Assembly: GCA_964462125.1 (NCBI GenBank) | Contig: CAYWXT010000065.1 | Span: 1 to 23,711 of the forward strand | Source of the DNA: an uncultured Pirellulaceae bacterium | Lineage (GTDB): Bacteria > Planctomycetota > Planctomycetia > Pirellulales > Pirellulaceae | DNA: 23,711 nucleotides | Direction of reading: 5' to 3' | In this document: positions 3,431 through 23,573 of the stretch, one piece after another | Position numbering within the stretch: the stretch's first letter is position 1 | How the letters are laid out: each line of letters starts with the position of its first letter | Translations under genes and position numbers: made by a program | Notes under the pieces: generated by a model | Told to the model about the DNA's origin: nothing | What the model saw: only the letters and a program-made list of their open reading frames with translations | The model's database searches: none

Positions 3431-3650
3431 GAGCATAGATGAGTCACGTGAGCGCTTCAGCGGGTGAACGGCGCTCGATCGCAGGCATGGGCAGTTTGGG
3501 CTCTTATTATCGCAAGTTGGCGGCCAGGTTGCAAATCACCCCCAAGGCGAAAATCGCTGGAATGCCGCCGCGAGCCGACTAGGCTTGGTCGGACACGATC
3601 CCCCGGGTCTGTCCGTTCCACTGGCGGCGGCCGAGCGGGACCGCTAGGCT

Positions 3651-4856
3651 TTGACCGGCGCCAGCGAGGACGAAAAAAACTCCGAAAAAAGTTGCCCCTG
3701 TACGGTCACTTCCACACCCTTGATCTATCTCGACTTCAACCGGACCACCCCGCTCGCCCCCTCGACCCGGGAGGCAATGGATCCGTTCTGGTCGATGCAC
3801 TTCATGCTGCCGTGCCAAGAGCACCCCCACGCGAGGGCGGTCAGCGAGGCGATCGAACGGGCTCGCGAAGGGGTCGCGGCGATGGCGGGGTGCGAACCGT
3901 TCGAGCTGGTCTTCACCGGTGGCGGGACCGAAGCGAACAACCTGGCAATCCTCGGGACTGCCGCCGAATCGGCCGAGCGGGGCGCCGACCGGAACGGGCA
4001 CCTGCTCGTCTCGGCACTCGAACATGAGTCGGTCCTCAGCGCCGCCCAGAGCCTCACCCGCCGCGGCTGGGACGTGGAAACGGTGCCCCCGGGCGACGAC
4101 GGAATCGTCGACCCGGAGCAGCTGGCCGATCGCATTCACGCCGAGACCCGGCTGGTCTGCCTGCAACTGGCCAACCCCGTGCTGGGAACCCTGCAACCGG
4201 TCCGCGAGGTCGCCGACCGCTGCCACGCCGCCGGAGTACGACTCCACTGCGACGCAACCCAAGCCTTCGGCAAGATCCCGGTCGATCTGACGCAACTCCA
4301 GGTCGACACCGCGGCGATCAGCGGGCACAAGATTTATGGTCCGAAGGGGAGCGGCGCGATGTACGTCCGCCGTGGCCTGCCGCTGGAACCGATCGGTTTC
4401 GGGGAGTCGCGCGAGATGGGCTTGCGCCCCGGCTCCGAAAACGTACCGGCCTGGATCGGTATCGGCGCCGCCTCGGCAATGGTGGGCCGCTGCGCCGAGG
4501 ACGCCGCCGCGAGACTGGCGGCACTCCGCGATCGCTTCGTCGACCAACTGCGCGCCGCCCTCTCGCCAGGGCCAACGGTGTTGTGTGAGGAGAGCCTCAA
4601 GCTGCCCAACACCGTCGCCCTGGAGATGCCGATCGAGTCGAGTCGCATCCGGCGGGCGGCACGCCAACTCGTCTTCGCCACCGCCCAGTCGGCCGCCCCG
4701 CCCGACGAGGTCACCCGCGCCCTGCGGGCGGTCCGCCGAAGCGACGCGCAAATCGGCCGGACCCTCTGCGTCTCGTTGGGTTGGACAACCAGCCAGGAGG
4801 AGATCGACCGGGCCGCCGATCGGCTGGCCGAAGCGGTCGATACCGCCGGTCAGTGA
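3651..4856 (+). CDS. class V aminotransferase, cysteine desulfurase-like (IscS/NifS family), apparently lacking the catalytic cysteine loop
   Basis: Strong IscS-like blocks are present: LIYLDFNRTTP, TGGGTEANN, HCDATQAFGKIPVDL, SGHKIYGPKGSGAMYVRR (the PLP lysine motif) and GFGESREMGLRPGSENV. The region that should carry the SSGSAC active-site loop instead reads VFATAQSAAPPDEV, with no cysteine. The start is uncertain, with TTG candidates at 3651 and 3720. Confidence 0.8.
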   Translation: MTGASEDEKNSEKSCPCTVTSTPLIYLDFNRTTPLAPSTREAMDPFWSMHFMLPCQEHPHARAVSEAIERAREGVAAMAGCEPFELVFTGGGTEANNLAILGTAAESAERGADRNGHLLVSALEHESVLSAAQSLTRRGWDVETVPPGDDGIVDPEQLADRIHAETRLVCLQLANPVLGTLQPVREVADRCHAAGVRLHCDATQAFGKIPVDLTQLQVDTAAISGHKIYGPKGSGAMYVRRGLPLEPIGFGESREMGLRPGSENVPAWIGIGAASAMVGRCAEDAAARLAALRDRFVDQLRAALSPGPTVLCEESLKLPNTVALEMPIESSRIRRAARQLVFATAQSAAPPDEVTRALRAVRRSDAQIGRTLCVSLGWTTSQEEIDRAADRLAEAVDTAGQ

Positions 4857-5362
4857 ACACCGCCAGCCGTAGCTGAAGTCGCAACGACTTCGGGTCTCCC
4901 CAGGCGGGCGGGTTGTCTTCTCAGGCTCGACCCGGGCGATTTCTTTACAACCAACTGCACCCCTCCGGTGGTAAGCCGGCCCGGCAGCAACCCGCTGCAT
5001 CTCCTCCCAACCCTTCGCTGGCCTGCCGACCAGCCCCGAGTGCGATCGGCCCTCCAAACGACCGTCGGGTCTCCCTGCCCCGAAAACCGCCGGATTCGAG
5101 CCCCAGACGACCGATTTTCAAAAAAAAATGCCGCGACCCAAGGTGGACACTTGGGATTTCGCCAATAACCGGCTGCCTAAAAAGTGGGCATCTCGCCGGC
5201 GACTCGGCGGCAGGCAGCCCTGCGCAGAAACCATGCACGTCAGTTCGTTTTCCCTAAGTTGTTTTGCTAGCACGGCTTGGTGAGATCGGTTTGACGGGGT
5301 CCGAGGATGGCGGCACAGCTCGGACGCCCCCGTCACCACGCGAAGGAAAGGCTATCTGGACC

Positions 5363-8761: not shown

Positions 8762-8929
8762 CGGTCGCTTCCGGATCTCTCTAACGTGCCGCGGCCATGA
8801 TGGTTATACTTGCCGATCGCGCCGCATCGCCGGTGAATCGTCATCCATCCTATCGAGTTTCCTTGATTTCGCCCCCGCCGAATGTCCGAAACGACCGTGA
8901 CCGAACATGCCCGTGCGAGCCATGAACCG

Positions 8930-8986
8930 CCCGTCACCGCCGACGACCAGCCCGTGACCGCCGACGACCAGCCCGTGACCGCGGAT
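8930..8986. repeat. 21-bp tandem direct repeat (about 2.7 units) in the fabH leader or N-terminal extension
   Basis: CCCGTCACCGCCGACGACCAG, then CCCGTGACCGCCGACGACCAG, then CCCGTGACCGCGGAT. If translated from the ATG at 8882 this encodes PVTADDQ PVTADDQ PVTAD. Confidence 0.85.
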
Positions 8987-9007
8987 ACGCTTTCGACGCG
9001 AGGACGG

Positions 9008-10021
9008 ATGGGCAGGGTGGCCGGCGTTCGCGTGATCTCGACCGGTTCCTACGCGCCGGAGCACGTGGTCACCAATCACGACCTGGCCGCTCTGGGCTGT
9101 GACAGCGATTGGATCGTACGTCGCACTGGGATCCAGCAACGTCGGCGGGCATCGGATGACGAGGCGACCAGTGACCTTTGTTATGAAGCAGCGATGGCCT
9201 GTCTGCGGGAGGCCAACCTGAGCGCCGATGCAATCGATTTGATCTTGGTCGCCACCATCACCCCCGATCACCCCACCCCCTCGACCGCCTGCCATCTGCA
9301 GCGGCGGCTCGGAGCGCTCGCTCCGGCGATGGACGTCAACGCTGCGTGCGCCGGGTTCATGTACGCCATGGTGACCGCGGCCCAGTTCATCGCGGCGGGC
9401 AACAGCCGCTATGCTCTGGTCGTCGGTGCCGACTTGATGAGCCGCACAGTCAACCCCGACGACAAGAAGACGTATCCGTTGTTTGGAGACGGCGCCGGGG
9501 CGGTGCTGATGACCGCCGATGACACCGATCCAGACCCCGGCAGCAGCCCTGCGTCGGGTCCCGGCCTGCTGGCGTACCAGATTGGCAGCGAAGGGTGCGG
9601 GGGTGAAATGCTCTGCATCCCCGCCGGTGGCACCCGCCAACCGCTGACCCCCGAAGTCTACGAGGCTGGCCACCAATACCTGACGATGGACGGCCGCAAT
9701 GTATTCAAGTGGGCGGTGCGGGTGTTTGCGGAAAGCGCCAAACAGGTCCTTTCCACCGCCGGTGCCACCCCGGAACAACTCGACCTGGTGATCTTGCATC
9801 AAGCCAACCAACGGATCATCGATTCCGCCGTCGCCGACCTCGCCCTGCCCGCGGAGAAAGTCTTTGTCAACCTCGACCGCTACGGCAACACCTCTGCCGC
9901 CAGCATCCCCCTGGCGTTGGACGAAGCGGTCCGCCAGGGACGCGTCCGGCGGGGCGACCTGGTGCTGCTCTGCGGCTTCGGCGCCGGTCTTGCCTGGGGT
10001 ACCGCCCTGATTCGCTGGTGA
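9008..10021 (+). CDS. fabH: 3-oxoacyl-[acyl-carrier-protein] synthase III
   Basis: Near-collinear with canonical FabH: RVISTGSYAPE, DWIVRRTGI, NAACAGF (active-site Cys), LFGDGAGAVLM, ILHQAN (His) and DRYGNTSAASIPLALDEA (Asn). The ATG at 9008 is preceded by an AGGA. An in-frame ATG at 8882 would add a 42-aa extension containing the tandem repeat. Confidence 0.9.
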   Translation: MGRVAGVRVISTGSYAPEHVVTNHDLAALGCDSDWIVRRTGIQQRRRASDDEATSDLCYEAAMACLREANLSADAIDLILVATITPDHPTPSTACHLQRRLGALAPAMDVNAACAGFMYAMVTAAQFIAAGNSRYALVVGADLMSRTVNPDDKKTYPLFGDGAGAVLMTADDTDPDPGSSPASGPGLLAYQIGSEGCGGEMLCIPAGGTRQPLTPEVYEAGHQYLTMDGRNVFKWAVRVFAESAKQVLSTAGATPEQLDLVILHQANQRIIDSAVADLALPAEKVFVNLDRYGNTSAASIPLALDEAVRQGRVRRGDLVLLCGFGAGLAWGTALIRW

Positions 10022-10040
10022 GTTGGGTCCGCTGGTGCCC

Positions 10041-10856
10041 TCACGCCCCGCGCGGCGCGAACGAAAATCCTGTGCGGTTGGCAAAGAACGCCAGCGGGTT
10101 GTCATAGACGATCTTCTTGATGCGTGACTCAGCGTGGCCTCGTCGCCGGAGCTCAAAGATCAGGTCGGGGACGGCGGTCGGCTTGCTCGGCCCCCAATCG
10201 CCGGCGGAGTTGGCCAATAACCGCTGGCCGCCAAAGCGCTCAATCATGTCGGCCGCACGCTCCGGGGTGCACTTGGTGACTGGGTAAAGCGTCATCCCGG
10301 CCCAGAACCCACGATCCAGCACTTCTCTGATCGTGTGCTCTTCGACATGATCGACCAATACCCGCCCCGGATCGACGCGAGAGTCGGCGGTCAACATGTC
10401 CAGGATCATCCGCGTCCCCTGGTACTTGTCTTCCAAGTGCGGTGTGTGGATCAGGATTGGCTGCTGGTGCTGCACCGCCAGGTCGACATGTTCGAGAAAG
10501 ATTGTGGCTTCGTTCTTGGTGTTCTTGTTGAGCCCGATTTCGCCGATCCCCAGCACGTTTGGGCGATCGAGGAACTCGGGGATCATCGCGATCACCTCTC
10601 GGGAAAGCGAAACGTTTTCAGCTTCTTTGGCATTGATGCAGAGCCAGCTGAAGTGCTGGATTCCGTAGGCCGCGGCGCGTTTTGGTTCGACCTCGGTGAG
10701 CTGTCGAAAGTAGTCCCGAAATCCGTCCGCGCTACCGCGATCGAACCCGGCCCAAAATGCCGGCTCACTGATCGCCACACATCCCATCCGGGCCAGCGTC
10801 GCGTAGTCGTCGGTGATCCGGGAGACCATGTGGATGTGGGGGTCGATGTAGTCCAT
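10041..10856 (-). CDS. TatD-family metal-dependent hydrolase
   Basis: MDYIDPHIHM (the HxH metal motif), PILIHTPH and LLANSAGDWGP are TatD/amidohydrolase-like blocks. The ORF track extends to 11009 only because it reads through the intergenic repeat (the MCKAP... artefact). The true start is most likely the ATG at 10854..10856. Confidence 0.75.
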   Translation of the reverse strand: MDYIDPHIHMVSRITDDYATLARMGCVAISEPAFWAGFDRGSADGFRDYFRQLTEVEPKRAAAYGIQHFSWLCINAKEAENVSLSREVIAMIPEFLDRPNVLGIGEIGLNKNTKNEATIFLEHVDLAVQHQQPILIHTPHLEDKYQGTRMILDMLTADSRVDPGRVLVDHVEEHTIREVLDRGFWAGMTLYPVTKCTPERAADMIERFGGQRLLANSAGDWGPSKPTAVPDLIFELRRRGHAESRIKKIVYDNPLAFFANRTGFSFAPRGA

Positions 10857-11616: not shown

Positions 11617-13179
11617 ATGCATGGGCTCGAACTGACCTTCAGCACGCTCGCCAAATCCCGTAACCAAGCGGCCATTGATGTGCTGCACACAGCGCTGCTG
11701 CAGGAGGACCGCTCGACGCGTCGACGGGCCCTTGAAGCGCTGCTCTACCGGAGTGAACCTCATTGCCGTCATCTGGTGCTCGCATATTGGAACCGGCTGC
11801 AATCCGAGGACATTGAACTGATCCGCCAGCAGAAGAACTGGCTGGAACCGGCGATTCGGCAAGGCTTGCGTCAATCCGATCCTGAGGTCGGCACGGCCAT
11901 CACGGCCGCCCGACAACTCGAGCTGCTCTCCGCGATCCCAGGGATCATCGCGGTCGCCGAGTCGATTGAAAGCGAAGCGGCATGCTGGGTCGCGACCGAC
12001 GCGGTCGAGGCGATGACGATCCCTTTGGGACGCGACGCCCGCTTGGATCGCGATCGGCCCACCCTTCGGAGCCCGACCCTGTCACGGTTGGCAGAGTCGG
12101 TCCGACAATTCGCGGAGCACAGGAATGAGGCCCTGCTGGATGCGTTTCTCAGCGTCACGACCTGGGGCGACAGTGAACTCCGCCACCTCCTGGATCCCGA
12201 TTCGCCCGCTGCCGGAACCCTGCTCGCACGGATGGCAAGCAGCGACAAACGGCCGGTGATCGAATTGTTGACCGGTTTCATCCGCCGCCGAATCCTGCCG
12301 GAGGGGATCGCGAAAATCCTTGCCGAACGCCAAGATCCACCGTTCCGCGACGCCTTATTGCAAGCGATCGGAGCGGAACCCTGCCCAAGCGTCCTCCGCA
12401 ACCTCAAACGGATCGGGTTGCCGGAGTGCTGTCGTGGGGGTGAGTCGTTGTTGGAGGAACTGCAGCCGGACGGGCGTGCCGCACTCGTTCATGTGGCGGC
12501 AGTGACCGACGCGGATCCGATTCGAGCGATGCATCTGACCTGCGGCGTGATTGAGCGGGGAAGCGCCGGGTGCGAGCAGGCCGCGGCATCGGCGCTCTCC
12601 CACTGCGAGGTCCCCGACGGCGAACTTTGGGTGCGGGCAGCAGCGCTCGTCGCCGATGGGGACCCCGAACGAATCTGGCGCCACGAGAACGCTCGCTTGC
12701 TCGAGCGTTTCATCCGCTTGCTGGATCATTCCAATCCGAGCATCGTCCGCAGCGTTCGCCGCTTGTTGCAACCACTCTATTTGGACCAAGTATTCTCTCG
12801 GTTCGACGCACTCCGTCCGAGAAGCCGTCGCCGGCTGGGTCGGGTGGTCCAAATGGTTGACCCGGCGGCGGTGGAGCGGTTGCGGGAAAAACTGCGCCAC
12901 CCGGTCCTGGAACAGCGACTCAAGGCGATCTCCGCCGCCGACGCGCTTGCTGTCGTTGATCTCCTGGTCGATGCCTTTCGCCCGATTGTCCGTGCGGACC
13001 ATCACGAAGCCCGCCGTCGGGCCGCCCAGGTTCTCGCCGACGCCGAAGGGGAGGAAACACTGCAAATCCTCCGCGAGATGACCGCGTTTCCTGACAGCAC
13101 CGTTCGTGACACAGCGATCGATGGGCTCGCCCGTCGTGAGGCACGAATCCAAGCAACGTCGCCCCAGGTCTCCCCATGA
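11617..13179 (+). CDS. HEAT/PBS-lyase-like repeat protein
   Basis: Repeated units of about 30 aa with the xxVRxxAxxAL pattern (RRRALEAL, VRRLLQPL, RRRAAQVLAD, VRDTAIDGLAR). GGAG lies 7 nt upstream of the ATG at 11617. Confidence 0.65.
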   Translation: MHGLELTFSTLAKSRNQAAIDVLHTALLQEDRSTRRRALEALLYRSEPHCRHLVLAYWNRLQSEDIELIRQQKNWLEPAIRQGLRQSDPEVGTAITAARQLELLSAIPGIIAVAESIESEAACWVATDAVEAMTIPLGRDARLDRDRPTLRSPTLSRLAESVRQFAEHRNEALLDAFLSVTTWGDSELRHLLDPDSPAAGTLLARMASSDKRPVIELLTGFIRRRILPEGIAKILAERQDPPFRDALLQAIGAEPCPSVLRNLKRIGLPECCRGGESLLEELQPDGRAALVHVAAVTDADPIRAMHLTCGVIERGSAGCEQAAASALSHCEVPDGELWVRAAALVADGDPERIWRHENARLLERFIRLLDHSNPSIVRSVRRLLQPLYLDQVFSRFDALRPRSRRRLGRVVQMVDPAAVERLREKLRHPVLEQRLKAISAADALAVVDLLVDAFRPIVRADHHEARRRAAQVLADAEGEETLQILREMTAFPDSTVRDTAIDGLARREARIQATSPQVSP

Positions 13180-13598
13180 TCCTTACCTTCACCCCAGCAC
13201 TGATAGCAAATTCGCGGGTGGGAGATATCAGCCGCCAACTCCGCGCCGAGGGGGGCGGAGCCCATGATTGGTCGGTGCAAATCGCGTTCATCCTGATTCC
13301 CGTGGCCGCAATCGGGCTGGCGTGGGTCTTCTATCGCTTCTACAGCCGGCCCCCGGCAACGGTCAACACACCGTTCGGAATGCTCGCGGAAATCAGCCGC
13401 GCCCACGAGATCTCTCCCGCCGGACGTCGCCTGCTGGAGCGGATCGCCGAACGTGCCGAGTTGGATCAACCCGCCCGCCTGACAATCGGGACAGAACCAT
13501 TCGATCAGGCGGTCGCGGCAGCCGAGCAACGTCGCCGACTCGACCCCCGCGAGCGAGAAAGACTCAAGCAGATCCGCAAACGCCTGTTCGCCGAATGA
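13176..13598 (+). CDS. small membrane protein, translationally coupled to the upstream HEAT-repeat gene
   Basis: ATGA overlap with the stop of the upstream gene. One clear TM helix (VQIAFILIPVAAIGLAWVFYRFY), followed by a charged helical tail. Confidence 0.5.
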   Translation: MILTFTPALIANSRVGDISRQLRAEGGGAHDWSVQIAFILIPVAAIGLAWVFYRFYSRPPATVNTPFGMLAEISRAHEISPAGRRLLERIAERAELDQPARLTIGTEPFDQAVAAAEQRRRLDPRERERLKQIRKRLFAE

Positions 13599-13613
13599 CC
13601 CCTCCCCGGCCGA

Positions 13614-16600
13614 TCAGGAGGGCTCCTCGGGACGGTGCGACGAAAGTGCATCCTGCACGGCGCGGTAACGCTCGAGCATCGCATCGAGTTGCCCCGCGAG
13701 CCGCTCCAGGTCGCGACCGTTGTCGATCGATTCGCTAAGAATCGGCTGCAGCCATTCCTGCATCAGATGGAACTGGCCTCGAATCATATCGGCCAGCACG
13801 CGGGGTACCTTGTGCTGCACAACAATCGGCTTGTCCGCCGGTGGTTCCGCCTGCCGCTCGCTGATCCGTTCCAGTTGATCCCCGGCGGCCTGCATCGTTT
13901 CGGCTAGCCGTTCTCCGGAAGCCAGCAAGGTTTGCCGGACCGCGTCGAAGCGAGCATCCATTCGTTCCTCGGCAGCCTCCTTTCCGACGGCGATTGCCCG
14001 GGAGATCACTTGCCGAATCGATTCCAACCCGTCCCGCATCGATGCCAACTGCCGCATCAACTGCGCTGCCTGGTCTTCGCTGTCCATCCCTGACATCCGC
14101 ACGCTTTCCACATAAGCGTATTTGATCGCGTCCCAACGCTGCTGCTCCTCGGGCGTCAGGATCCCCAACAGTTCCTTGAACTTCAAGACGTTCGCTTCGT
14201 TATCGGTCGTCAGCGTCTGCGCATCCTGTTCATAGCTGCCGACGATCAGCGACTGCAGTTCCGCGTCGTTCATCACCCCGGCGACTTTTTCAGCGATGCG
14301 ATTCATGTTCCGGTAACTTCCCTGCAGCTTGAACGGCGGTTCGGTACGATATTCGTCGGCCTGGGCAGCGCTGCGAATGTACGCCCGGTTGACGCGCAGC
14401 ACGACGTCGCGGACGCGAAGCAGCTTTCGAATCACCTCGAACATCTCGCGGACCTGATCGACCGACAAATTGCTCCGCAGCTCGATCCCGTCCAGAGTGT
14501 CGCGTTCGGCGGCCAGGATGATCGCTCGGGCATCCTCCGGCGGGGCGGTCGACAGCGGCGCCAGTACCGGGTTGCTGGTCAGACAGTTCTCCAGATAGCT
14601 CATTTCGAACGCATCGGCCGCGTTCCCAATGATCTCGCCCAGGTTATAAACGTCGGCCCGGTTGGAGAGCATGTCGGGGATCTGGAACCGATGACCGCTC
14701 TCGGTATACGGATTGCCCGCCATCACGACCGACACCCGGCGTCCCCTCAAGTCATACGTGCGGGTCTTGCCGTCGCGGACCCCTTCGATCTTGCGGGTCG
14801 CGTCACAGAGCGAAATGAACTTCTGCAAAAACTCGGAATGCGTGTGCTGGATGTCGTCTAAATAAATCATCACGTTGTCCCCCATCTCGAGCGCCAAGTT
14901 CAGCCGCTGGACCTCCTCCCGCGCCGCGGCGTTGGGAGCCTCGGCCGGATCGAGGGAGGTGACGCCGTGACCGATTGCCGGACCATTGATTTTCATGAAC
15001 ACGACACCGAGCCGATTGGCGACGTACTCCATCAACGTCGTCTTGCCATAGCCCGGGGGGGAAATCAGCAGCAGCAGCCCCATCCGGTCGGTCCGCTTGT
15101 TCTCCCCCGCCGCCCCCATCTGCTTGGCGAGGTTGTCCCCGATCATCGGCAGGTAAACGTCATCGAGCAATCGATTGCGGACGAAGCTCGTCAACACCCG
15201 GGGCTTGAACTCCTCGAGCCGCATCTGTTCACGTGACCGATCCACGATCCGGCTCTTCGCTTCATGCAGTCGCCGGAACCGCGGGACGACGTTTCGACGA
15301 TAATGCCGGACGCGGCCGAGCAACTCGTGGTAGTGAATCGGCATCGACCCGGATCGAATGCGGGAATGGTGGCCGGCCAGCGAGTTGACCGTCGTCGCCA
15401 CCTCCGCCTCCACGGTGCGAACGTTTTTAACTCCTTCGGCAAGCACCAACCATGCGAGCTCGTCGCGATAGCCGATGGCCGGGTCGACCGGATCGTCCGC
15501 GGTCTCCGATTCGAGGAAGGCTTCGGCCCAGTTCCGCGCCAAGACAAACGCGCGTCGCGGGTCGGCTTCGTGATGCTTCAACGGTGTCGACAGCAAGCGA
15601 TCACGATCGACTTCAGGGATCGCCCCGACGAAAGCGTTCCATAATTTGGCCGCACGGCCGCTTGCGATGAACGTTCGGGGACGGCTGATCAATTGCGCGA
15701 AAAGGTAATCCGCGATCCGCTCCGACGTCACCTCCCTGCCGAACAATGGTCCCCACTGCTCCTGGTCGGCGCCCGCCAGTTCGGCCAACCGCTCGTGAAA
15801 TTCCCGCGCCGGCCGGGCGTCCGGATACGCCTTGGCGAGCTTGGCAAAGCCGGTGATCCAATCGGTCATCGTCTTCCGTTCCTTCGCCGCAAGCAGCTTC
15901 ACGAACCACAACTGGGACGCCGCCCGCAGGTCCGGCGGATATCGAAGCAGGCCGATCGACGCGTCGATCTCGAGCAGGCGCCGCAGGATTGCCGCCGCGT
16001 CATGGTCGTGGACTCCCTTGGCGTAGCCTTCGTCAAACCGTCCTCCAGCCCGCTGCTGAACCCAGCCCGCATCAACCGCTTTGGCATCGACCGCTTCACC
16101 ACGTTCACGCAACGCTTCGAACAGGTCCACGGCCAAGTACTCACCGCGGTACACCTCCCCGTTTTCGCTAACGAGTTCCTGGTTCCACAGTTCGCGTGCT
16201 TCGGCCAACGCTGGATCATCGAGCGGCTGGAAGTATTGCGTCCCGGTGAGGTGCAAACAGAGTTCGTCGCCCCGCAGCACCGTCGTCAGATCGAGCGGCT
16301 GTGTGTTGACGGCAAACCGCTGAGTCCCCAAGCGAATCAGCTCGCCGCCGTCCTCGTACAAGTCCTGACGATCTCGCAGCTGCAGCGTTGCATCCTCGCG
16401 AATCGTCTTCAGCCGGCCCTGCAAATCCTCGACCCGAACAGCATCATCGAGCTCCCCGAGTTGCCCAATGATGCCCCGAATCTTTTCGACCATCAGGTCG
16501 CCGGCAAAGTAGGCGGCGATCTCGTCAGTCGATTCCATGGAACGCACGCGGGTGTCGATCCCCTTGAGAATCCGATCCGCGGCCGCGGCCAACGATTCGG

Positions 16601-18863
16601 CACGCCGGTTGCGCCGTTCGACAAGCTGCACCTTCCGCGATTCAAACGCCGCGTAGACATCGTCCCGCCGCTGAGCCAATTGAATGATGAAGTCATCAAA
16701 CTCGGCGAATCGGCCTTCCAGTTCCTCCAGTTGGACCATCACCTTGGTGAGGTACTCGTCGCACTTTTCCGGTGAGTCACAGACATCGAGATAACCGGAC
16801 GTGGTTTGCTCAAGCAGCCTGAGTTGCGAGGCGAATTCGGCCCTGCCTTCGACACTGACCAATTCGGTGATGCGACCCTTGAGTCCGCTCCGGACACGAT
16901 TGAGCGACGCAAAGACGTCACCGATGGCGTCGATGATCTCGGTTCGCTCGGTGGCATCGTCGATCCGCAAGTTGCTCACTGTCTCGGTCAGCAGCTCCAG
17001 TTGGGCGCCGGCCTCATCGATCTGGTCCTCCAGTTGCCGGGCCTCGGAAACGGTCTTCACCTCCCCGATCCGGCCGTCTGCTTGGGCAACCCGATCGCGG
17101 TAGGGGTCGAGCGCCCCGGGGGAAAGCAGGAAATCGACACAGCGATGACTGAGCCGCTGAGCCCGCTCCGCCGTCGTCTCCTCCAGCCGCTCGACCACTT
17201 CCGTGTCGACATACTTAAGTTCCCGGAGCCCCAGGGCGTGCCCGCGCTGCTCGCGCAGCTTTGCCAATGCCGACACAAAGTCGTCGATCGATTCAAACCG
17301 GCCGCGGTCAATCTGTTTGATCAGCTCATCGACGGCTGTTCGAACCGCCTCGGTCTTGGCTTCCGTGTCGCGCCGAATGCGGACGACCTTTTCGAATTCC
17401 TCGGTCGCCGACTCCGCGGTCTCGCGGATCTTTTGCAGCGGCTCACTGAGCCGTTCCGTTTCCGGCTTGTCGATCCAGAAGTAGCTGTCGAGAATATCCG
17501 CCGCCCGCTTGGCCAGATCGACGTACAAGCCGTCGTAGCTGTCGTCCTTCTCGACTAACTGCAGCAACTCACTGGATTCCGCCATGCACCGCACAATTTC
17601 CTTGTTGCCGATCTTGAACAGCAGCGAATCGGTTTGGTTTTCCGGGACATGGTCCAGGCTTACATAGGGTGTTTGCCAGATCTGGATCGCGTGGTGCTTC
17701 TGCGGCTCCTCCTGGGCGCGGAAGCAAACCATTTCGCCGCCGGAAAACAGCGTCTGTCCGTGGCAGATCAGCGGCGTATCGACACTTTGCCGGATCAGGT
17801 TGTAGCGGAGTTGGACGTAGGTGCCGGTGTCCGGGTTGTAAAACAGGTATAGGTAGTCTTCCCCGTTTGGCGCCGCGACGGTGCGTTGAAACCGCATGTC
17901 GCTCAAGCCGTGGTCGAAACGTTTGAAGTCGCCGGTTTGCAGGTAGTACCCACCGGGAAAGATCAAGCCTTGGTCCCCCGGCAGCATTACGCAGGCATGT
18001 TCGATTTCGTCCAGCCGCATCGCCTGGCCGAGCTTGCCGTTGTAAACCAAATAGCGGGTCGCCGACTCCTGATAGGGCCGGATCTTCAGCAGCACCAAAT
18101 TGCCGACGACGGCGTAGTGGATCTCGGCGTCATCGAGTGTCTGATCGGGATTATCAACGGGTTCGCTGTATATCCCTTCGCCGCTCTCGGTATTGTTTTC
18201 GATTTTGATCGAGAGATCACCGCCGACGGTTTCGACAAACACGCGGTCCTCGATCGAGACGTGCGGGTGGGATCCGTAGTGATGTTGATCTCGGGTCGTC
18301 CGTTTCCAGTGGAATTCGTGTTGCTCCGGATCGCGGACCTCATGTTCACTGCGGTTGTCGAGATATTCCAGATGATCAGCGGCGATCCGCCATTTGAACG
18401 ACTTGATATCACGGGGGGTGTTGCCGACGCTAAACACCATGTGCAGCATCGGCCCATCACGGAAGAAGCGGGCGAAGGTGGTGTGCTTGTAAAAGCGATA
18501 CAGTTCGTGGAAATCACTTTGGAAACGCTCGTCGCGAATCAGCTCGAGCGGTTCGCTGTGAAATTGCTGTGACTCAAAGCGGTATAGCGCGAACACGTCT
18601 TCGAGCTGAATGTCCGTCTTGAGTCCAAACTGGACGTTGTAGCCAAAGAGAAATCGCTCACCGACGGAAACGAGGTCACGGGGAATGCAGTTGTGCTCAG
18701 TCGTGACCCGTTCGGTCGCCAGCAACCGGGTTTCGACATTGCCGAAGACCTCGGAACGCTCGTCGTTGAGACGCTTGAGCCGTTTGCGCAGGTCGCCGGC
18801 GGCATCCCGCAAACGATGGCGAAGGACCTCATAGGTCCCGGCGGTGAGCTGCGGATCAGCCAT
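13614..18863 (-). CDS. giant (1749 aa) multidomain protein with C-terminal AAA+ P-loop ATPase module
   Basis: Walker A GYGKTT, encoded at 15036..15053 (minus-strand read GGCTATGGCAAGACGACG). Walker B hhhhDD is IYLDD, about 57 residues downstream. The region between them looks AAA+-like (VVFMKINGPAIG ... RVSVVMAGNPY). The N-terminal roughly 450 aa is aromatic-rich and probably beta-rich. The roughly 700 aa between it and the ATPase, and the final roughly 300 aa, are Glu/Arg/Leu-rich coiled coil. Confidence 0.85.
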   Translation of the reverse strand: MADPQLTAGTYEVLRHRLRDAAGDLRKRLKRLNDERSEVFGNVETRLLATERVTTEHNCIPRDLVSVGERFLFGYNVQFGLKTDIQLEDVFALYRFESQQFHSEPLELIRDERFQSDFHELYRFYKHTTFARFFRDGPMLHMVFSVGNTPRDIKSFKWRIAADHLEYLDNRSEHEVRDPEQHEFHWKRTTRDQHHYGSHPHVSIEDRVFVETVGGDLSIKIENNTESGEGIYSEPVDNPDQTLDDAEIHYAVVGNLVLLKIRPYQESATRYLVYNGKLGQAMRLDEIEHACVMLPGDQGLIFPGGYYLQTGDFKRFDHGLSDMRFQRTVAAPNGEDYLYLFYNPDTGTYVQLRYNLIRQSVDTPLICHGQTLFSGGEMVCFRAQEEPQKHHAIQIWQTPYVSLDHVPENQTDSLLFKIGNKEIVRCMAESSELLQLVEKDDSYDGLYVDLAKRAADILDSYFWIDKPETERLSEPLQKIRETAESATEEFEKVVRIRRDTEAKTEAVRTAVDELIKQIDRGRFESIDDFVSALAKLREQRGHALGLRELKYVDTEVVERLEETTAERAQRLSHRCVDFLLSPGALDPYRDRVAQADGRIGEVKTVSEARQLEDQIDEAGAQLELLTETVSNLRIDDATERTEIIDAIGDVFASLNRVRSGLKGRITELVSVEGRAEFASQLRLLEQTTSGYLDVCDSPEKCDEYLTKVMVQLEELEGRFAEFDDFIIQLAQRRDDVYAAFESRKVQLVERRNRRAESLAAAADRILKGIDTRVRSMESTDEIAAYFAGDLMVEKIRGIIGQLGELDDAVRVEDLQGRLKTIREDATLQLRDRQDLYEDGGELIRLGTQRFAVNTQPLDLTTVLRGDELCLHLTGTQYFQPLDDPALAEARELWNQELVSENGEVYRGEYLAVDLFEALRERGEAVDAKAVDAGWVQQRAGGRFDEGYAKGVHDHDAAAILRRLLEIDASIGLLRYPPDLRAASQLWFVKLLAAKERKTMTDWITGFAKLAKAYPDARPAREFHERLAELAGADQEQWGPLFGREVTSERIADYLFAQLISRPRTFIASGRAAKLWNAFVGAIPEVDRDRLLSTPLKHHEADPRRAFVLARNWAEAFLESETADDPVDPAIGYRDELAWLVLAEGVKNVRTVEAEVATTVNSLAGHHSRIRSGSMPIHYHELLGRVRHYRRNVVPRFRRLHEAKSRIVDRSREQMRLEEFKPRVLTSFVRNRLLDDVYLPMIGDNLAKQMGAAGENKRTDRMGLLLLISPPGYGKTTLMEYVANRLGVVFMKINGPAIGHGVTSLDPAEAPNAAAREEVQRLNLALEMGDNVMIYLDDIQHTHSEFLQKFISLCDATRKIEGVRDGKTRTYDLRGRRVSVVMAGNPYTESGHRFQIPDMLSNRADVYNLGEIIGNAADAFEMSYLENCLTSNPVLAPLSTAPPEDARAIILAAERDTLDGIELRSNLSVDQVREMFEVIRKLLRVRDVVLRVNRAYIRSAAQADEYRTEPPFKLQGSYRNMNRIAEKVAGVMNDAELQSLIVGSYEQDAQTLTTDNEANVLKFKELLGILTPEEQQRWDAIKYAYVESVRMSGMDSEDQAAQLMRQLASMRDGLESIRQVISRAIAVGKEAAEERMDARFDAVRQTLLASGERLAETMQAAGDQLERISERQAEPPADKPIVVQHKVPRVLADMIRGQFHLMQEWLQPILSESIDNGRDLERLAGQLDAMLERYRAVQDALSSHRPEEPS

Positions 18864-18932
18864 GGCGAATGCGACTGGGGGATTGGGACGACGGTGTGGA
18901 TGGAATGCAGCGTGCCTGGGCGGAACAATCCA

Positions 18933-20972
18933 TCACGCTTGCTTGCCGTTGCCCGCGGCGGCTGTCGCGTTCAGCAGACGCCCGGCCTTTTCATCCACGA
19001 TGTTGGCGGTCCCGGCCATGTTCAACAAGCTCGCCAACTGGCTGCGGACGTCATCGGTGTTCGCCATTCCCATCATCTTGGCGATCAGCGCCGCGATCGA
19101 CAGGTCCTTGACGCCATCGGTGTCGAGGTTGAACTGGTGGATCAATTCCGCGAGTTGCTCGCGGAAGTATTCCGCGTTGCCGTCGAAGAAGGTGTCTTTG
19201 ATGTCGGTGGCGACCTTGCTGTTGTAGACGAACCGGTCGATCGCCTTGCCCCCTTTGACCGCCGAGGTGATCTGATCGAAGAACTCGCCGTCGCCGCCGA
19301 CGATATCGATGCGGGCACTTCGGAGTGCATCGCCGACCACGCCCGCCTGGCTTTCGGCGATCCCGCGTTGCGCATCGATCGCCGCGATTTCGACGTCCTT
19401 GTCTTTCTCGAGCCGGATCTTGAACTCCTCGTGGTCCTTGCCGACGCCGTCGAGTTGCTTCATCGCCTCGGCCTTTTCCGTGATGCCGACCGCCTCGCTG
19501 TGGTACTTCTCGCGCGTGACATTCGCTTCGGCCATTCCTTCTTTTTCGAGCGCGTCGGCCTTGGCCTCCTGGACCTGGGCCTCGGCCAGTCCCGTCGCGG
19601 CGGTCTGAGCGGTTTCGGCTTCGGCCAGCATCTTCGTCGCGGCGGTTTCTTTCTCGGCCGCGTCCCGGTTGGCCTCGGCCTCGATGCGAATCTTTTCGGC
19701 GAGCAGTTCGCTGGCCTCCTTTTCGGCCTGGGCCAGTTTCGTCTGGCGGATTCGCTCCTCCTCTGCCTTCGCCTCGGCGGCGACCACCTGAACCCTCTTT
19801 TGGCGATCCGCGCCGGCAAATTCTTCGGTGTCCTTGATCCGCTCCTGTTCCTCAACGACCGACCGTTCGACGGCGACTCGTTCGCGGATCACCTCCTGGA
19901 TGTTTCGCTTTTCGACCTCGATCGCCTTGTCCTTTTCGACGTCGGCGACGCCGACGACACGGAGCCGTTCGGTCGCTTCCAGGTCGCGGTCCCGGACCAC
20001 CCGTTCCTGCTCGACCCCGTCGGTCTTTTCCTTGTTCCGCTGGGCGACCAGGATCTGTCGGTCCATGTTTTCTTCGGCCACCCCGATCTCTTCCTGGGTG
20101 ACGATGCGGGCCCGTTCCCGTTCGAGCCGCTGTTCTTCCTCGACCTTGGCGGAGGCGGCGCGTTCGCGGGCGGAGATTTCGGCGATCTCGCGCTGTTGCT
20201 TCTCCACCGCCTGGACCCGCTGCCGCTCCAACTCCAGGATCGTTTCTTCTGCCTCGACATCCTGCTTTTTGAGAACCTTTTCCTTGTCGCGGGTGAATTG
20301 GTTCTCTTTGACCTTTTCGGTTGCGGTCAACTCGGTGATCTTCTTGATCCCTTCCGCGTCCAGGATGTTGGACGGGCTGAGCATCTCCAGCGGTGTCTGT
20401 TCGAGGTAATCGATCGCCGCGTCGTCAAGCCGGTATCCGTTGAGGTCGGTTCCGATGACCTTCAGGATCTCGTCCTTGAATTTATCGCGCTGGTCATAAA
20501 GGTCGACAAAGTCAAAGTGTTTGCCGACGGTCTTGAGGGCCTCGCTGAACTTGGCGTCGAACAGTTCCCGGAGCGTATCGATTTGGCTGCAGCGTTTGGC
20601 CCCGATCGACTGAGCGACCTCCTTGACCTCTTCCATCGATTTGTCGACGCGGACGAAGAAGGCGACCTTGATGTCGGCGCGAATGTTATCGCGACAGATC
20701 AAGCCCTCGGCGCCCTGGCGATGGATCTCGAAGCTCTTGAGCGTCAGATCCATGAATTCGTACTGATGGACCATCGGCACGACCCACATGCCGTCGCCGG
20801 AAGCGACGCGGAGTCCGCCGCTGCCGGAGCGGACGATCGCCTCGTCGGGTCCCACTTTGATATAGAACCGCTTGTAGGCGATGACAACGCCAAGCAGTGC
20901 GATCAGAAACAGGGCGATGACGAGCAGGCCGAAGTCCGCGAGGAGCGAATCGGTGATCATCTGGGCGATCAT
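18933..20972 (-). CDS. flotillin-like SPFH/band-7 protein (YqiK-type)
   Basis: An N-terminal TM helix (LLVIALFLIALLGVVIAY) is followed by an SPFH core (KVGPDEAIVRSGSGG...LTLKSFEI...DIKVAFFVRV). A long EA-rich coiled-coil flotillin domain comes next (EAKAEEERIRQTKLAQAEKEASELLAEK...). The start ATG overlaps the stop of the upstream NfeD-like gene in an ATGA. Confidence 0.9.
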   Translation of the reverse strand: MIAQMITDSLLADFGLLVIALFLIALLGVVIAYKRFYIKVGPDEAIVRSGSGGLRVASGDGMWVVPMVHQYEFMDLTLKSFEIHRQGAEGLICRDNIRADIKVAFFVRVDKSMEEVKEVAQSIGAKRCSQIDTLRELFDAKFSEALKTVGKHFDFVDLYDQRDKFKDEILKVIGTDLNGYRLDDAAIDYLEQTPLEMLSPSNILDAEGIKKITELTATEKVKENQFTRDKEKVLKKQDVEAEETILELERQRVQAVEKQQREIAEISARERAASAKVEEEQRLERERARIVTQEEIGVAEENMDRQILVAQRNKEKTDGVEQERVVRDRDLEATERLRVVGVADVEKDKAIEVEKRNIQEVIRERVAVERSVVEEQERIKDTEEFAGADRQKRVQVVAAEAKAEEERIRQTKLAQAEKEASELLAEKIRIEAEANRDAAEKETAATKMLAEAETAQTAATGLAEAQVQEAKADALEKEGMAEANVTREKYHSEAVGITEKAEAMKQLDGVGKDHEEFKIRLEKDKDVEIAAIDAQRGIAESQAGVVGDALRSARIDIVGGDGEFFDQITSAVKGGKAIDRFVYNSKVATDIKDTFFDGNAEYFREQLAELIHQFNLDTDGVKDLSIAALIAKMMGMANTDDVRSQLASLLNMAGTANIVDEKAGRLLNATAAAGNGKQA

Positions 20973-21673
20973 GGGTCTACCTTTGGGGCCGCAACAACCT
21001 TATAGACACGGCTGTCCGCGTCGTAAGCAACGATTTCGACGCGCGTGCCTTTGGGAAGGCATTCGCCGTCGGTCCGAATATTCAGGAGCAGCGGGGCCGC
21101 GTCGGTCGCGAAATTCGCCTGGCCGTACGACCGGTCGACCTCGCCGCTGGAAACGGTACAGGTGCGCCCAATCAGATCACCGGGTCCATACGTCTCGGCA
21201 GGTATAAAAATCCGATTGAGGGGCGCTGTCAAAAATTTTGTAATCCCGATTGCAATGACCCCGTTTCTGATCGCCAACAGCGAACTCGTCATCAACGTCG
21301 GCTCGTAGCGGCGGGTGTCGAAGCCGTACCAGAGGCCATAGGACAAAGCCCAGTAGATGACGATGAAGACCGCCAGCCAGAGGATCAACGGCAACCGTTC
21401 CAGATTCATCCACCGCAGCGTCGCCGCTCCAATGCCCCCCAGCAGTCCGCCATGGTTCGTCGTCTCGGGACTGAGATCCGTCTCCAGATCAAACAAGTCC
21501 CCGATTCCGGTACCGAAGTCGATCAACCCCAGCACCGCGATGAGCACATAGGCCACCAGCAAGCCGACCAAAACCGACGCCGGCCACACCGGACCGACGA
21601 AAATCTGCTCGATGAACTCGGTAAATCGCTGGCTCACGCGAACAAATCCGAACAAATGAGGAGGGCGGTTCAA
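20969..21673 (-). CDS. NfeD/YqiJ-like membrane protein (SPFH partner) with C-terminal OB-fold
   Basis: Three hydrophobic TM segments are followed by a beta-rich C-terminus (LIGRTCTVSSGEVDRSYGQANF...LPKGTRVEIVAYDADSRVYKVV) resembling NfeD OB domains. It sits immediately upstream of, and is translationally coupled to, the flotillin gene, as in yqiJ-yqiK-type operons. Confidence 0.7.
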   Translation of the reverse strand: MNRPPHLFGFVRVSQRFTEFIEQIFVGPVWPASVLVGLLVAYVLIAVLGLIDFGTGIGDLFDLETDLSPETTNHGGLLGGIGAATLRWMNLERLPLILWLAVFIVIYWALSYGLWYGFDTRRYEPTLMTSSLLAIRNGVIAIGITKFLTAPLNRIFIPAETYGPGDLIGRTCTVSSGEVDRSYGQANFATDAAPLLLNIRTDGECLPKGTRVEIVAYDADSRVYKVVAAPKVDP

Positions 21674-21917
21674 TCAACCGCAGTTCACTAGCTTATCGCC
21701 AGGGCCCGGAAAAATCCGCAACAGGGCGCCCGATTGGCGAAAAAAATTGCCACGGCGCCAGTAGCCGATCGGGCGTCGGTGCGACGGGGCGGGAGAGCTT
21801 GGCTGCTGGAAAGTATGGCTGGATCGCTTTTAGCGGCTGGGAGCGTCGAACGAGCGGCGTGGCGATCTTCGTCGACTTTGACGTTCGATCGGCTGGGGGA
21901 ACCGGTGCGGGTTGCCG

Positions 21918-23573
21918 ATGTCGGAGGGTAGCACCCGGGATGTAGGTGCCGGCCGTCGTGAGTCGACCCTCCGCGTCGATGTCACGAATCGTTTCGGCCA
22001 AGGTAGTGGCACGGATCGCCTCCACACGACACCACTCCAAGAAGCGAAGCCGAGCGTGTCCAAGACGATCCCGAGCTATTTGCGTATTCATCGCGGCCCC
22101 CGCCGCGAAGCTTCCCAGAACCCAACGGCGGCGTCCGACGGGTTGCAGCAGTTCTGGCAGGCCTACACCGAGGCGACCGGCTGGCGGGTCGATACTCGCC
22201 GAGTTCGCCGCGGTGTCGATCTGACGCTTCTGCCAGCGGTCGTGACCGATGGGATGAGCGGCGCCGACGATCTCGATGCGGTGCCGCCGGTCAGCCGGTC
22301 GAGCGCCGCCCAACTGGCTCGCGCCGCAACCGTGCTGGCGAAGCAACTGCATCGTTCGCAAGAGGCCATTCGGCGGCAGGAAGCAGAATTGGCGACACGG
22401 GCCGCGGTGATCGCCAGCGACGAGGATCGCGCCGACCTGGCGAGCCGCCTGGAGGCGATCCTGCGTGATGCGGCAACGGCCTGCCGATGCGATGCGGCGG
22501 CGCTGTACCTGCTCGATGACGACACCCGCTATTTGACGACCCGAGCGGTCTCTGGGCTGCCGGCCGACCGCTTGGGCGCCGCGCCCCGAGAACTGCGTGG
22601 CAGCCGCGCTGATCTGGAAGCGCTGGTCCAGGAAGTCGTCCTGATCGACGAGGCGACCGCCGGGGGAATCGATAGCTGGCAGTTCCCGGAGCCTTTCCCC
22701 GCTGGGGTCTGTGCCTCGGTCAATGAAGGGGATTTGCCGATCGGGACGTTGTGGTTGTTTTCGAACACACCGCAGTCGTTTGCTGAGCCAGAGCGAGCCG
22801 CAGCGCGAATGGCTTCATCGCACGTGGCAACAGAAATCGCCCGGGCAGCGGCCACGACGAACCGGCTCGACGTCAACACGGCCCGGGTGGCGATCGGGGA
22901 CGCGGCCCAGTGGCAGTACCGCACGTTGCCCGTTTCCTCCGAATTGGCTCCAGGCTGGACCGCTGACGGGATGATCGAATCGAACCAGGAGTGGGCGATC
23001 GGCTGGCATACCTGGGACGTGCTGCCCGACGGCAGCCTGGTGTTCGCGCTCGCTGAAGCGGTGGACCGTTCGATGGCCGGCGGCATGGCGGCCGCCATCG
23101 CCCGCGCGGCCCTGACGGCACACTGCGGCTATCGACACACGCCGAAACAGTTGATCCAAAGGGTCGGCGATACCCTTTGGCAATCGAACTCCGGTGACCA
23201 ACTGCTCTCGCTGTTGTACGCCCGCGTCGATCCTGAAACGGGAGACGGGCAAATCGCGACGGCGGGCAAGACTCAAACAATGATCGCCAGCCGTTACGGC
23301 TACCGGCCCCTGGCCGACGGACGTAGCGAGCCACTGGGGACGCATATCGATACCCGCCCCGCTGTCGAATCGTTTCGCCTTCTGCCCGGCGAAGCGCTGC
23401 TGGCCTATGGCGACGGCCTGGTGGCCGACGGCGCGAACCAACAACTACTCGGCGAAGCCCTCCGCGGAGCCATCCGACTCGGAAGCCAAAGCCCCCTCGC
23501 CGCAATCCGCCGTGTACTCGCCGACCGCCCGCTGAGGCACGAGCGAGGGGCAGGAGCGCTGGTGCGGGAGTAG
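21918..23573 (+). CDS. GAF-domain PP2C-type (SpoIIE/RsbU-like) serine phosphatase
   Basis: The central region ALYLLDDDTRYLTTRAVSGL...VVLIDEATAGG is GAF-like. The C-terminal region IGWHTWDVLPDGSLVFALAEAVDRSMAGGMAAAIA ... LLAYGDGLVADG matches the SpoIIE/PPM metal-binding GD.Y.D and TDG blocks. The start is uncertain, with a TTG at 21912 and an ATG at 21918. The first roughly 100 codons are Arg-rich and may not be coding. Confidence 0.65.
   Translation: MSEGSTRDVGAGRRESTLRVDVTNRFGQGSGTDRLHTTPLQEAKPSVSKTIPSYLRIHRGPRREASQNPTAASDGLQQFWQAYTEATGWRVDTRRVRRGVDLTLLPAVVTDGMSGADDLDAVPPVSRSSAAQLARAATVLAKQLHRSQEAIRRQEAELATRAAVIASDEDRADLASRLEAILRDAATACRCDAAALYLLDDDTRYLTTRAVSGLPADRLGAAPRELRGSRADLEALVQEVVLIDEATAGGIDSWQFPEPFPAGVCASVNEGDLPIGTLWLFSNTPQSFAEPERAAARMASSHVATEIARAAATTNRLDVNTARVAIGDAAQWQYRTLPVSSELAPGWTADGMIESNQEWAIGWHTWDVLPDGSLVFALAEAVDRSMAGGMAAAIARAALTAHCGYRHTPKQLIQRVGDTLWQSNSGDQLLSLLYARVDPETGDGQIATAGKTQTMIASRYGYRPLADGRSEPLGTHIDTRPAVESFRLLPGEALLAYGDGLVADGANQQLLGEALRGAIRLGSQSPLAAIRRVLADRPLRHERGAGALVRE

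Follow-up and report, generated by a model that had tools for sequence, protein, structure and literature searches.

The role of bacterial flotillins is still debated. In Escherichia coli (yqiJ-yqiK) and Bacillus subtilis (yuaF-floT; PMC2636767), a gene for an NfeD protein of the YqiJ/YuaF type lies directly upstream of the flotillin gene, and Ravi et al. 2024 (mSystems, PMC11237479) have described in silico an operon in which a flotillin and a YqiJ/YuaF protein are combined with a CesT/Tir-PspA dyad and a propeller-AAA+ ATPase. The same study also describes abbreviated operons, which consist of just the flotillin and the YqiJ/YuaF protein, in some cases together with the AAA+ ATPase; these are found more widely and, it is proposed, might cooperate with PspA from another locus. 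Table S3 of that study gives Dokdonia donghaensis ANH61663.1 as an example, and the study contains no linkage statistics, structural models or experiments. The occurrence of PspA beside band-7/FloT and NfeD genes has also been reported by Popp et al. 2022 (PMC9239133). The present work concerns a stretch of 23,711 nucleotides (nt) from an uncultured Pirellulaceae bacterium (contig CAYWXT010000065.1 of assembly GCA_964462125.1; the whole stretch is referred to below as “the window”), and in particular three adjacent minus-strand genes that encode a YqiJ-like membrane protein, a flotillin and an AAA+ ATPase of 1749 amino acids (aa), referred to below as “the giant”.

The locus is the Pirellulaceae copy of an arrangement that is known from comparative genomics and whose function is uncharacterised. 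It shares with the operon of Ravi et al. the three core genes, their order and their domain architectures, while the absence of PspA, CesT/Tir and helix-turn-helix (HTH) regulator genes among the scanned ORFs (open reading frames) of the window makes it an example of the “abbreviated” form; the Bacteroidota loci discussed below show the complete arrangement, with the divergent HTH regulator as well. A first-pass annotation of the window, made from the sequence alone, had presented the module as its best candidate for a poorly described system. The novelty implied in this has to be given up, since the cluster, including its abbreviated three-gene form, is already in Ravi et al. 2024 (PMC11237479); the idea was published in silico in 2024 and is not new here. 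With the E. coli and B. subtilis pairs the locus shares the placement of the YqiJ/YuaF-type NfeD gene directly upstream of the flotillin gene, and the N-terminal ~430 residues of its flotillin are homologous to YqiK. It differs from E. coli yqiJ-yqiK in having a giant downstream, in the length of the flotillin (679 aa, compared to 553 aa for YqiK), and in the C-terminal ~200 residues, for which no similarity to YqiK was detected. The coupling of an SPFH scaffold to an AAA+ machine at the membrane recalls, as a functional analogy drawn from the literature, HflK/C-FtsH and other pairs of SPFH cages with AAA+ machines, but the giant, unlike FtsH, has neither a transmembrane anchor nor a protease domain, and its AAA+ core does not belong to the classical type, that of FtsH. 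Structurally, this core is matched best by MoxR-type (NorQ, CbbQ) and RuvB modules, and this likeness is at the level of the generic fold only.

A search of the literature found no paper which mentions DUF3686 or PF12458 (the Pfam family of the N-terminal domain of the giant), none which pairs flotillin with a “DNA repair ATPase” (a public name of giant homologs), and no experimental study of the giant; the papers retrieved on SPFH, NfeD and AAA+ proteins dealt only with HflK/C-FtsH and with SPFH proteins in general.

The three-gene module and its conservation

It can be stated with high confidence that the three genes form a minus-strand module, organized as an operon, in which a YqiJ/YuaF-type NfeD gene is followed by a YqiK-type flotillin gene and then by the gene for a giant DUF3686 AAA+ ATPase. 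The gene for the YqiJ-like membrane protein occupies 20969..21637 (minus strand, 222 aa) when it is read from a GTG at 21637, which was taken as the working start; this is the shorter alternative to the longest open reading frame (ORF), which has a TTG start and spans 20969..21673 (234 aa). The YqiK/FloT-type (SPFH2) flotillin follows at 18933..20972 (minus strand, 679 aa), its start codon overlapping the YqiJ-like stop codon in an ATGA at 20972-20969, and the giant, a cytoplasmic ATPase of the DUF3686-DUF7902-AAA+ family, lies at 13614..18863 (minus strand, 1749 aa). The junction between flotillin and giant (18864..18932, minus strand) is 69 nt long and contains no terminator-like hairpin with a T-run. 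This agrees with the first-pass annotation, which had described three minus-strand ORFs, an ATGA overlap and a 69-nt gap lacking a terminator-like site. The shared orientation, together with the overlap and close spacing, suggests that the trio is co-transcribed as a single operon. No sigma-70-like promoter consensus was found in the region 13000-22200.

The flotillin and the NfeD-like protein had also been recognised in the first reading, an identification which holds at the level of profiles but not when Pfam is applied to the window proteins alone. An alignment of 28 flotillin orthologs matches E. coli YqiK with an hhalign probability of 100% (E 2.6e-43, 400 columns, 31% identity). The window flotillin taken by itself has no Pfam match even at E<=10, and thus matches neither the Band_7 nor the C-terminal flotillin model; the NCBIfam FloT model gives a weak match (E 4.9e-4), and a sequence search of the PDB with this single protein returned nothing useful. 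Against the PDB, the profile of the 28 orthologs produced only a coiled-coil match, to QmcA (E 5e-4). Pfam Band_7 is found in 3 of the 28 orthologs (best E 3.3e-13). Because Band_7 finds no match, even at E<=10, in the window protein or in most of the orthologs, censuses of SPFH proteins based on domain matches will miss this subfamily.

Hydropathy places two hydrophobic stretches in the YqiJ-like protein (at aa ~23-61 and 88-118, numbered on the 234-aa ORF), ahead of a C-terminal soluble domain which may be an NfeD-type OB fold. The ortholog alignment of this protein matches E. coli YqiJ from end to end, including the C-terminus (hhalign probability 96.9%, E 1.8e-10, 187 columns). The Pfam YqiJ_N model scores 22.0 bits on the window protein, just under the cut-off of 23, and is matched by 9 of 24 orthologs, with a Bacteroidota ortholog reaching 34 bits, while the NfeD model gives E 0.018. 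A direct BLASTP comparison of the window protein with YqiJ is not significant (E 0.4), and the sole match of the profile in the PDB, to the soluble domain of B. subtilis YuaF (2k14), is weak (E 0.1). To judge from these comparisons, the YqiJ-like gene and the flotillin gene are the SPFH2/NfeD2 (yqiJK / yuaF-floT) module of Hinderhofer et al. 2009 (PMC2636767).

The flotillin consists of a hydrophobic N-terminal stretch, the SPFH domain, a long helical region rich in Glu, Ala and Lys, and a conserved C-terminal segment of ~200 aa. The hydrophobic stretch lies within residues 1-40 according to hydropathy (roughly aa 14-32 by eye), and the basic sequence KRFYIK that follows this transmembrane helix suggests an N-out/C-in topology in which the bulk of the protein would be cytoplasmic, and would therefore share a compartment with the giant. 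The hhalign match to YqiK ends near aa 436, and in the C-terminal 200 aa BLASTP detects no similarity to YqiK (E>0.5). Residues ~480-679 (window 18936-19535) are strongly conserved among giant-linked flotillins, with motifs such as H514-E-E-F and I557-x-G-G; the giant or the YqiJ-like partner may dock on this C-terminal segment of ~200 aa. A strong AT skew is seen between 19001 and 21000, where the flotillin gene encodes its charged, Ala-rich helices.

Homologs of the giant are numerous and agree with it in domain architecture and length. Its N-terminal domain is represented by 730 clusters at 50% identity, most of whose full-length members, among those listed, have 1600-1900 aa; the whole protein has more than 5000 homolog clusters at 90% identity, and relatives occur in at least 584 species when each GTDB species is represented by a single genome. 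The best 80 loci come from Planctomycetota, Verrucomicrobiota, Kiritimatiellota, Bacteroidota, Desulfobacterota and Clostridia; further matches were obtained in Acidobacteriota and Sumerlaeota, and, from a plasmid collection, in Pseudomonadota, Actinomycetota and Deinococcota.

The gene neighbourhoods of these homologs were surveyed by calling ORFs in all loci and searching them by phmmer, or by iterated hidden Markov models (HMMs), built from the three window proteins; linkage was counted over the 60 genome loci in which 3.6 kb or more of sequence lies upstream of the giant, and over 5 further loci. A flotillin gene lies directly upstream of the giant on the same strand in 57 of the 60 genome loci, and is itself preceded by a YqiJ-like gene in 53 of them. 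The same gene order is found in all five extra loci, which are those of plasmid pQBR103 of Pseudomonas fluorescens SBW25, Vibrio campbellii, Proteus mirabilis, Streptomyces and Deinococcus. Over about ten phyla, this brings the totals to 62/65 for the flotillin and 58/65 for the YqiJ-like gene as well. The linkage seen in the window is thus recurrent, which is the opposite of the unlinked giant that the first-pass annotation had named as the outcome that would count against its proposal. Four loci with a flotillin have no YqiJ-like gene detectable upstream by HMM: in three Verrucomicrobiota loci (L060, L062 and L071) the flotillin is divergent (39% identity) and the YqiJ-like position is held by other ORFs, and the fourth is L006.

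The flotillins are ~50% identical across phyla. In most lineages flotillin and giant are -11 to ~150 nt apart, and in many Bacteroidota and Verrucomicrobiota the distance widens to 0.4-2.4 kb through the insertion of small variable ORFs. Among the inserted ORFs (L024 6618-7704, L075 5838-7100, L034 7229-7912 and others) are DMP19-like (PF14300, E 7e-28) and DUF3997 genes as well as ORFs with no Pfam match. The genes that flank the module vary among lineages, even within the Pirellulaceae, and since the flanks differ in this way, it is the trio that forms the conserved unit. The dependence within the trio appears to be one-sided: the pair of flotillin and YqiJ-like genes can stand alone, as in E. 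coli yqiJK, where no giant lies downstream, while the giant almost never does, as expected if the giant is an accessory dependent on the scaffold. The pairwise identities of giants and flotillins are correlated (r 0.84, with 0 of 999 permutations reaching this value), a correlation for which shared phylogeny is a sufficient cause. The fact that the giant is almost never found apart from the flotillin/NfeD pair offers a concrete handle on the function of bacterial flotillins, and the hosts of the trio include tractable organisms: Proteus mirabilis, Vibrio campbellii, P. fluorescens with pQBR103, and Flavobacterium.

At 16-18 Bacteroidota loci the operon opens with a CesT_Tir_1 gene (PF22550, E 5.3e-56) and a PspA/IM30 gene (PF04012, E 8.7e-41), and a divergent HTH regulator lies upstream. 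A reading of the module in terms of membrane stress or membrane remodelling, which the first-pass annotation had favoured, gains strength from Bacteroidota and pQBR103, where the operon also includes genes for PspA and CesT/Tir. The pQBR103 copy (L083, NC_009444.1 84437-97641) is a run of ten genes on one strand in which yjfI-pspA and polyamine-type genes precede the trio, in the order YjfI, PspA/IM30, rhomboid, DUF2491, DUF350, DUF1190, glutathionylspermidine-synthase-like, YqiJ-like, SPFH and “DNA repair ATPase”.

Architecture of the giant ATPase

The giant belongs, by its domain matches, to an uncharacterised Pfam family that combines DUF3686, DUF7902 and one AAA+ module. The DUF3686 match (PF12458) is complete, since aa 24-462 align with profile positions 1-448 of 448 (E 9.9e-193, 641 bits); the domain maps to 17478..18794 on the minus strand and comprises an N-terminal helix (aa 4-40), a beta-rich part (aa 46-397) and then helices. 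DUF7902 (PF25472, E 1.6e-27) occupies aa 584-666, at 16866..17114 on the minus strand, inside a helical stalk. Weak Pfam matches to AAA, AAA_5 and RuvB_N cover aa 1253-1388 (PF00004 scores 29.7 bits against a cut-off of 21.2), the NCBIfam models give only RuvB and Cdc48 P-loop matches that are far below threshold, and a sequence search of the PDB aligned only ~35-90 residues around Walker A, in p97, Rix7 and RuvB. The statement in the first-pass annotation that the giant could be matched to no characterised family is thereby upheld, DUF3686, DUF7902 and a generic AAA+ module being all that is recognised. Public databases list its homologs as “DNA repair ATPase” (the name given by the annotation pipeline PGAP), “ATPase involved in DNA repair”, “MoxR-like ATPase” or “AAA family ATPase”. 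Hydropathy indicates no transmembrane segment.

AlphaFold2 models were obtained for aa 1-560, from 35 sequences, and for aa 840-1749, in both cases as a monomer only. The N-terminal model (predicted local distance difference test score, or pLDDT, 88.3; predicted template modelling score, or pTM, 0.82) consists of a helix at aa 4-40, a beta-rich region at aa 46-397 with ~28 strands, which is read as a divergent beta-propeller, and long helices at 414-560. The C-terminal model (pLDDT 80.3, pTM 0.63) comprises, in order, a beta subdomain at ~842-880, helices at ~905-1140, a beta unit at ~1148-1177, a long helix, the AAA+ core, a lid and a tail. The helices at ~905-1140, most of which have a pLDDT of ~90, are read as a compact helical domain and not as a coiled coil, a reading made from the run of helices and not from their packing in three dimensions. 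The length of coiled coil proposed at first, roughly 700 aa, is in this light an overestimate: residues 414-560 are indeed modelled as long helices, but part of the span in question appears to be taken up by helical domains and small beta subdomains. The C-terminal tail (13617..14096, minus strand, aa ~1590-1749) is modelled as long helices of low confidence after aa ~1600, and the last ~150 residues of the protein have pLDDT values of 39-72. For the ~1250 residues of the giant that lie outside the AAA+ module, neither the sequence search nor Foldseek found a counterpart in the PDB.

The alpha/beta core of the AAA+ module spans aa ~1262-1425 (14589..15080, minus strand). The Walker A motif SPPGYGKT (aa 1268-1275, 15039-15062, minus strand) and the Walker B-like motif MIYLDD (aa 1332-1337, 14853-14870, minus strand), both noticed on first inspection, are present. 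Walker A conforms to the pattern GxxGxGK[ST], and the segment PPGYGKTT (aa 1269-1276) is invariant in 36 diverse homologs. Walker B departs from the pattern hhhhDE, because the equally invariant D1336-D1337 places, throughout the family, an Asp where the catalytic Glu is expected. The invariant positions of the 36 homologs also include the whole of D1336-D1337-I-Q-H, together with M1381/G1383-N-P-Y-T, P1396-D-M-L and N1401-R1402. In the AlphaFold2 secondary structure, a beta-hairpin at aa ~1358-1371 precedes the sensor-1 strand, N1384 ends strand beta4, and R1402 precedes beta5; the last two residues, both invariant, stand at the places expected for sensor 1 and for an arginine finger, and N1384 is accordingly assigned by position only as the putative sensor 1 and R1402 as a candidate arginine finger.

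A Foldseek search with the core returned RuvB (E 1.3e-6), NorQ/CbbQ of the MoxR group (with the best target-normalised TM-score, 0.55-0.58), MCM, ClpA/ClpC and Lon, and the modelled core is of the type with a pre-sensor-1 hairpin, among which no one family stands out as the nearest. There is some resemblance to RuvB motifs in the GP-bearing stretch that follows beta2 and in the D-x-I-x-H pattern beyond Walker B. In the segment that follows strand beta2 (NGPAIGH) there is no aromatic pore-loop motif. Since the Walker B motif ends in DD and an aromatic pore-loop motif is lacking, substrate threading is not indicated.

Proposed role and competing explanations

The explanation that best accounts for the data overall, which combines the identity of the module with a mechanism, is that the trio is an SPFH2/NfeD2 pair followed by a DUF3686 giant ATPase, and that the ATPase is an ATP-driven remodeller which acts on the flotillin scaffold at the cytoplasmic face of the membrane during envelope stress. 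The probability of this explanation as a whole is put at roughly 0.6; the specific mechanism is a tentative proposal from the combined analysis, somewhat short of an even chance. In this mechanism, the flotillin would be anchored by its N-terminal transmembrane helix with its SPFH and coiled-coil parts in the cytoplasm, as in solved SPFH assemblies. It would oligomerise into a membrane-attached cage or ring to which the YqiJ-like partner would bind, by analogy with HflK/C(-FtsH), QmcA-YbbJ and flotillin-1/2. The architecture of the soluble giant suggests that its one AAA+ module would mediate its assembly, probably into a hexamer, and the giant would reach the flotillin assembly either through its stalk and beta-propeller or through its tail. 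Binding and hydrolysis of ATP would then remodel the scaffold, or proteins or polymers held by it (PspA, where present), in response to envelope or membrane stress.

Several observations weigh against this proposal. Gene order demonstrates a functional association only, and a physical link between giant and flotillin would go beyond it. Three giants (L027, L028 and L050), each with 8 kb of upstream sequence, stand without a neighbouring flotillin or YqiJ-like gene. The scanned ORFs of the window include no PspA gene. Finally, with its Walker B DD and without an aromatic pore loop, the AAA+ module could act as a slow switch.

A more specific possibility is that the giant docks on the bacterial flotillin cage as its dedicated motor or switch, in the form of an AAA+ ring of about a megadalton from which six long helical arms with beta-propellers at their ends extend. 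The family-wide Walker B DD and the lack of an aromatic pore loop would fit a machine that drives assembly, disassembly, or membrane remodelling or repair by a means other than threading. This version is judged rather unlikely, at something like one chance in several. If it is true, it would constitute a new class of SPFH-coupled mechanoenzyme and a concrete biochemical partner for bacterial flotillins, and it would link SPFH scaffolds to the repair of membranes by ESCRT-III-like PspA.

The strongest competitor to remodelling of the flotillin scaffold is a role for the giant as a Vps4-like ATPase that recycles polymers of PspA, a member of the ESCRT-III superfamily, with flotillin and the YqiJ-like protein serving only as a platform; in planctomycetes, the PspA-family protein would be encoded elsewhere in the genome. 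In its favour, the operon itself carries PspA and CesT/Tir genes at 16-17 Bacteroidota loci and on pQBR103, but a PspA gene is not adjacent in ~43 of the 60 genome loci or in 4 of the 5 extra loci, nor is one found among the scanned ORFs of the window, while flotillin is nearly always present. The sequence and fold of the giant also speak against it, since Pfam detects neither an MIT nor a Vps4_C domain, and the core resembles RuvB/MoxR/MCM-type modules with a pre-sensor-1 hairpin instead of the classical clade to which Vps4 belongs. The recycling role is considered improbable, although not negligibly so.

Less probable again is a system for the quality control of membrane proteins, comparable to FtsH-HflK/C, m-AAA-prohibitin or p97-erlin, in which the flotillin cage would corral clients and the giant, which has no protease domain, would extract or unfold them. 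It is well established that SPFH cages pair repeatedly with AAA+ machines, as in HflK/C-FtsH, and the conservation of the trio is in keeping with such a role. An enzyme that extracts or unfolds its clients is nevertheless difficult to reconcile with the Walker B DD and with the lack of an aromatic pore-loop motif, and the operon has no conserved gene for a protease or an adaptor.

There is very little to recommend the suggestion, also made in the first-pass annotation, that the module is an anti-phage or other conflict (defence) system assembled on a membrane scaffold. It is generally known that conflict systems often contain large NTPases with coiled coils and propellers, and copies of the module reside on megaplasmids. 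PADLOC, however, matches the giant only through a 29-residue P-loop segment of IetA (E 9.4e-4) and has no match for the flotillin or the YqiJ-like protein, and no copy of the giant is found in the phage collection that was searched. The strong conservation of the system (~50% identity across phyla), the housekeeping genes that flank it in the window, and the lack of a conserved gene for a nuclease or another toxin-like effector in the module all count in the same direction, so that the defence idea was not borne out.

The least probable explanation, a DNA repair ATPase related to RuvB as the PGAP and Pfam names imply, can be rejected, because the weak RuvB_N/RuvB matches over the P-loop region (24 bits) and the place of RuvB among the top Foldseek matches are set against RuvB equivalog scores that lie far below their cut-offs (23.7 bits against 282 for NF000868, 21.2 against 299 for TIGR00635), a likeness to RuvB that is confined to ~50-70 residues around Walker A, structural matches that are not specific to RuvB since MoxR, MCM and Clp match equally, the failure to detect a DNA-binding domain, and conserved partners that are membrane proteins. 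The name “DNA repair ATPase” was most likely assigned by PGAP in error, on the basis of weak RuvB-like similarity in the P-loop, and this public annotation is probably misleading to users of the databases.

Other features of the window

The best protein matches of the window are to Pirellulaceae, in the phylum Planctomycetota. The other genes that it carries are housekeeping-like, and include those for a hemerythrin, a Na/Pi cotransporter, a DUF1559 protein, an aminotransferase, an Orn/DAP decarboxylase, a signal peptidase, FabH, TatD and a HEAT-repeat protein; no tRNA or Rfam element was found in the window.

A gene for a protein with GAF and SpoIIE (PP2C phosphatase) domains lies at 21912-23573 on the plus strand, divergent from the operon. 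The first reading of the locus had treated this gene as a regulator of the operon, a role that is rejected here, since tblastn finds the gene in none of the 81 related loci (L001-L081), those of the closest Pirellulaceae included. Its adjacency looks incidental, and it does not appear to be part of the system.

The GC content ranges from 58 to 69% per 1-kb window across the stretch. Long ORFs run opposite to three of the genes: 18693-21005 (plus strand, 770 aa) opposite the flotillin, 3579-5057 (minus strand) opposite the aminotransferase, and 8804-10156 (minus strand) opposite FabH. The latter two have no family match, and all three are taken to be artefacts of the high GC content.

The HEAT-repeat protein (520 aa) and an overlapping ORF of 140 aa without a family match, which together occupy 11617-13598 on the plus strand, converge on the 3' end of the giant, and are separated from its stop codon by 15 nt; this pair of genes is kept beside the module only in the two closest relatives, L002 and L003.

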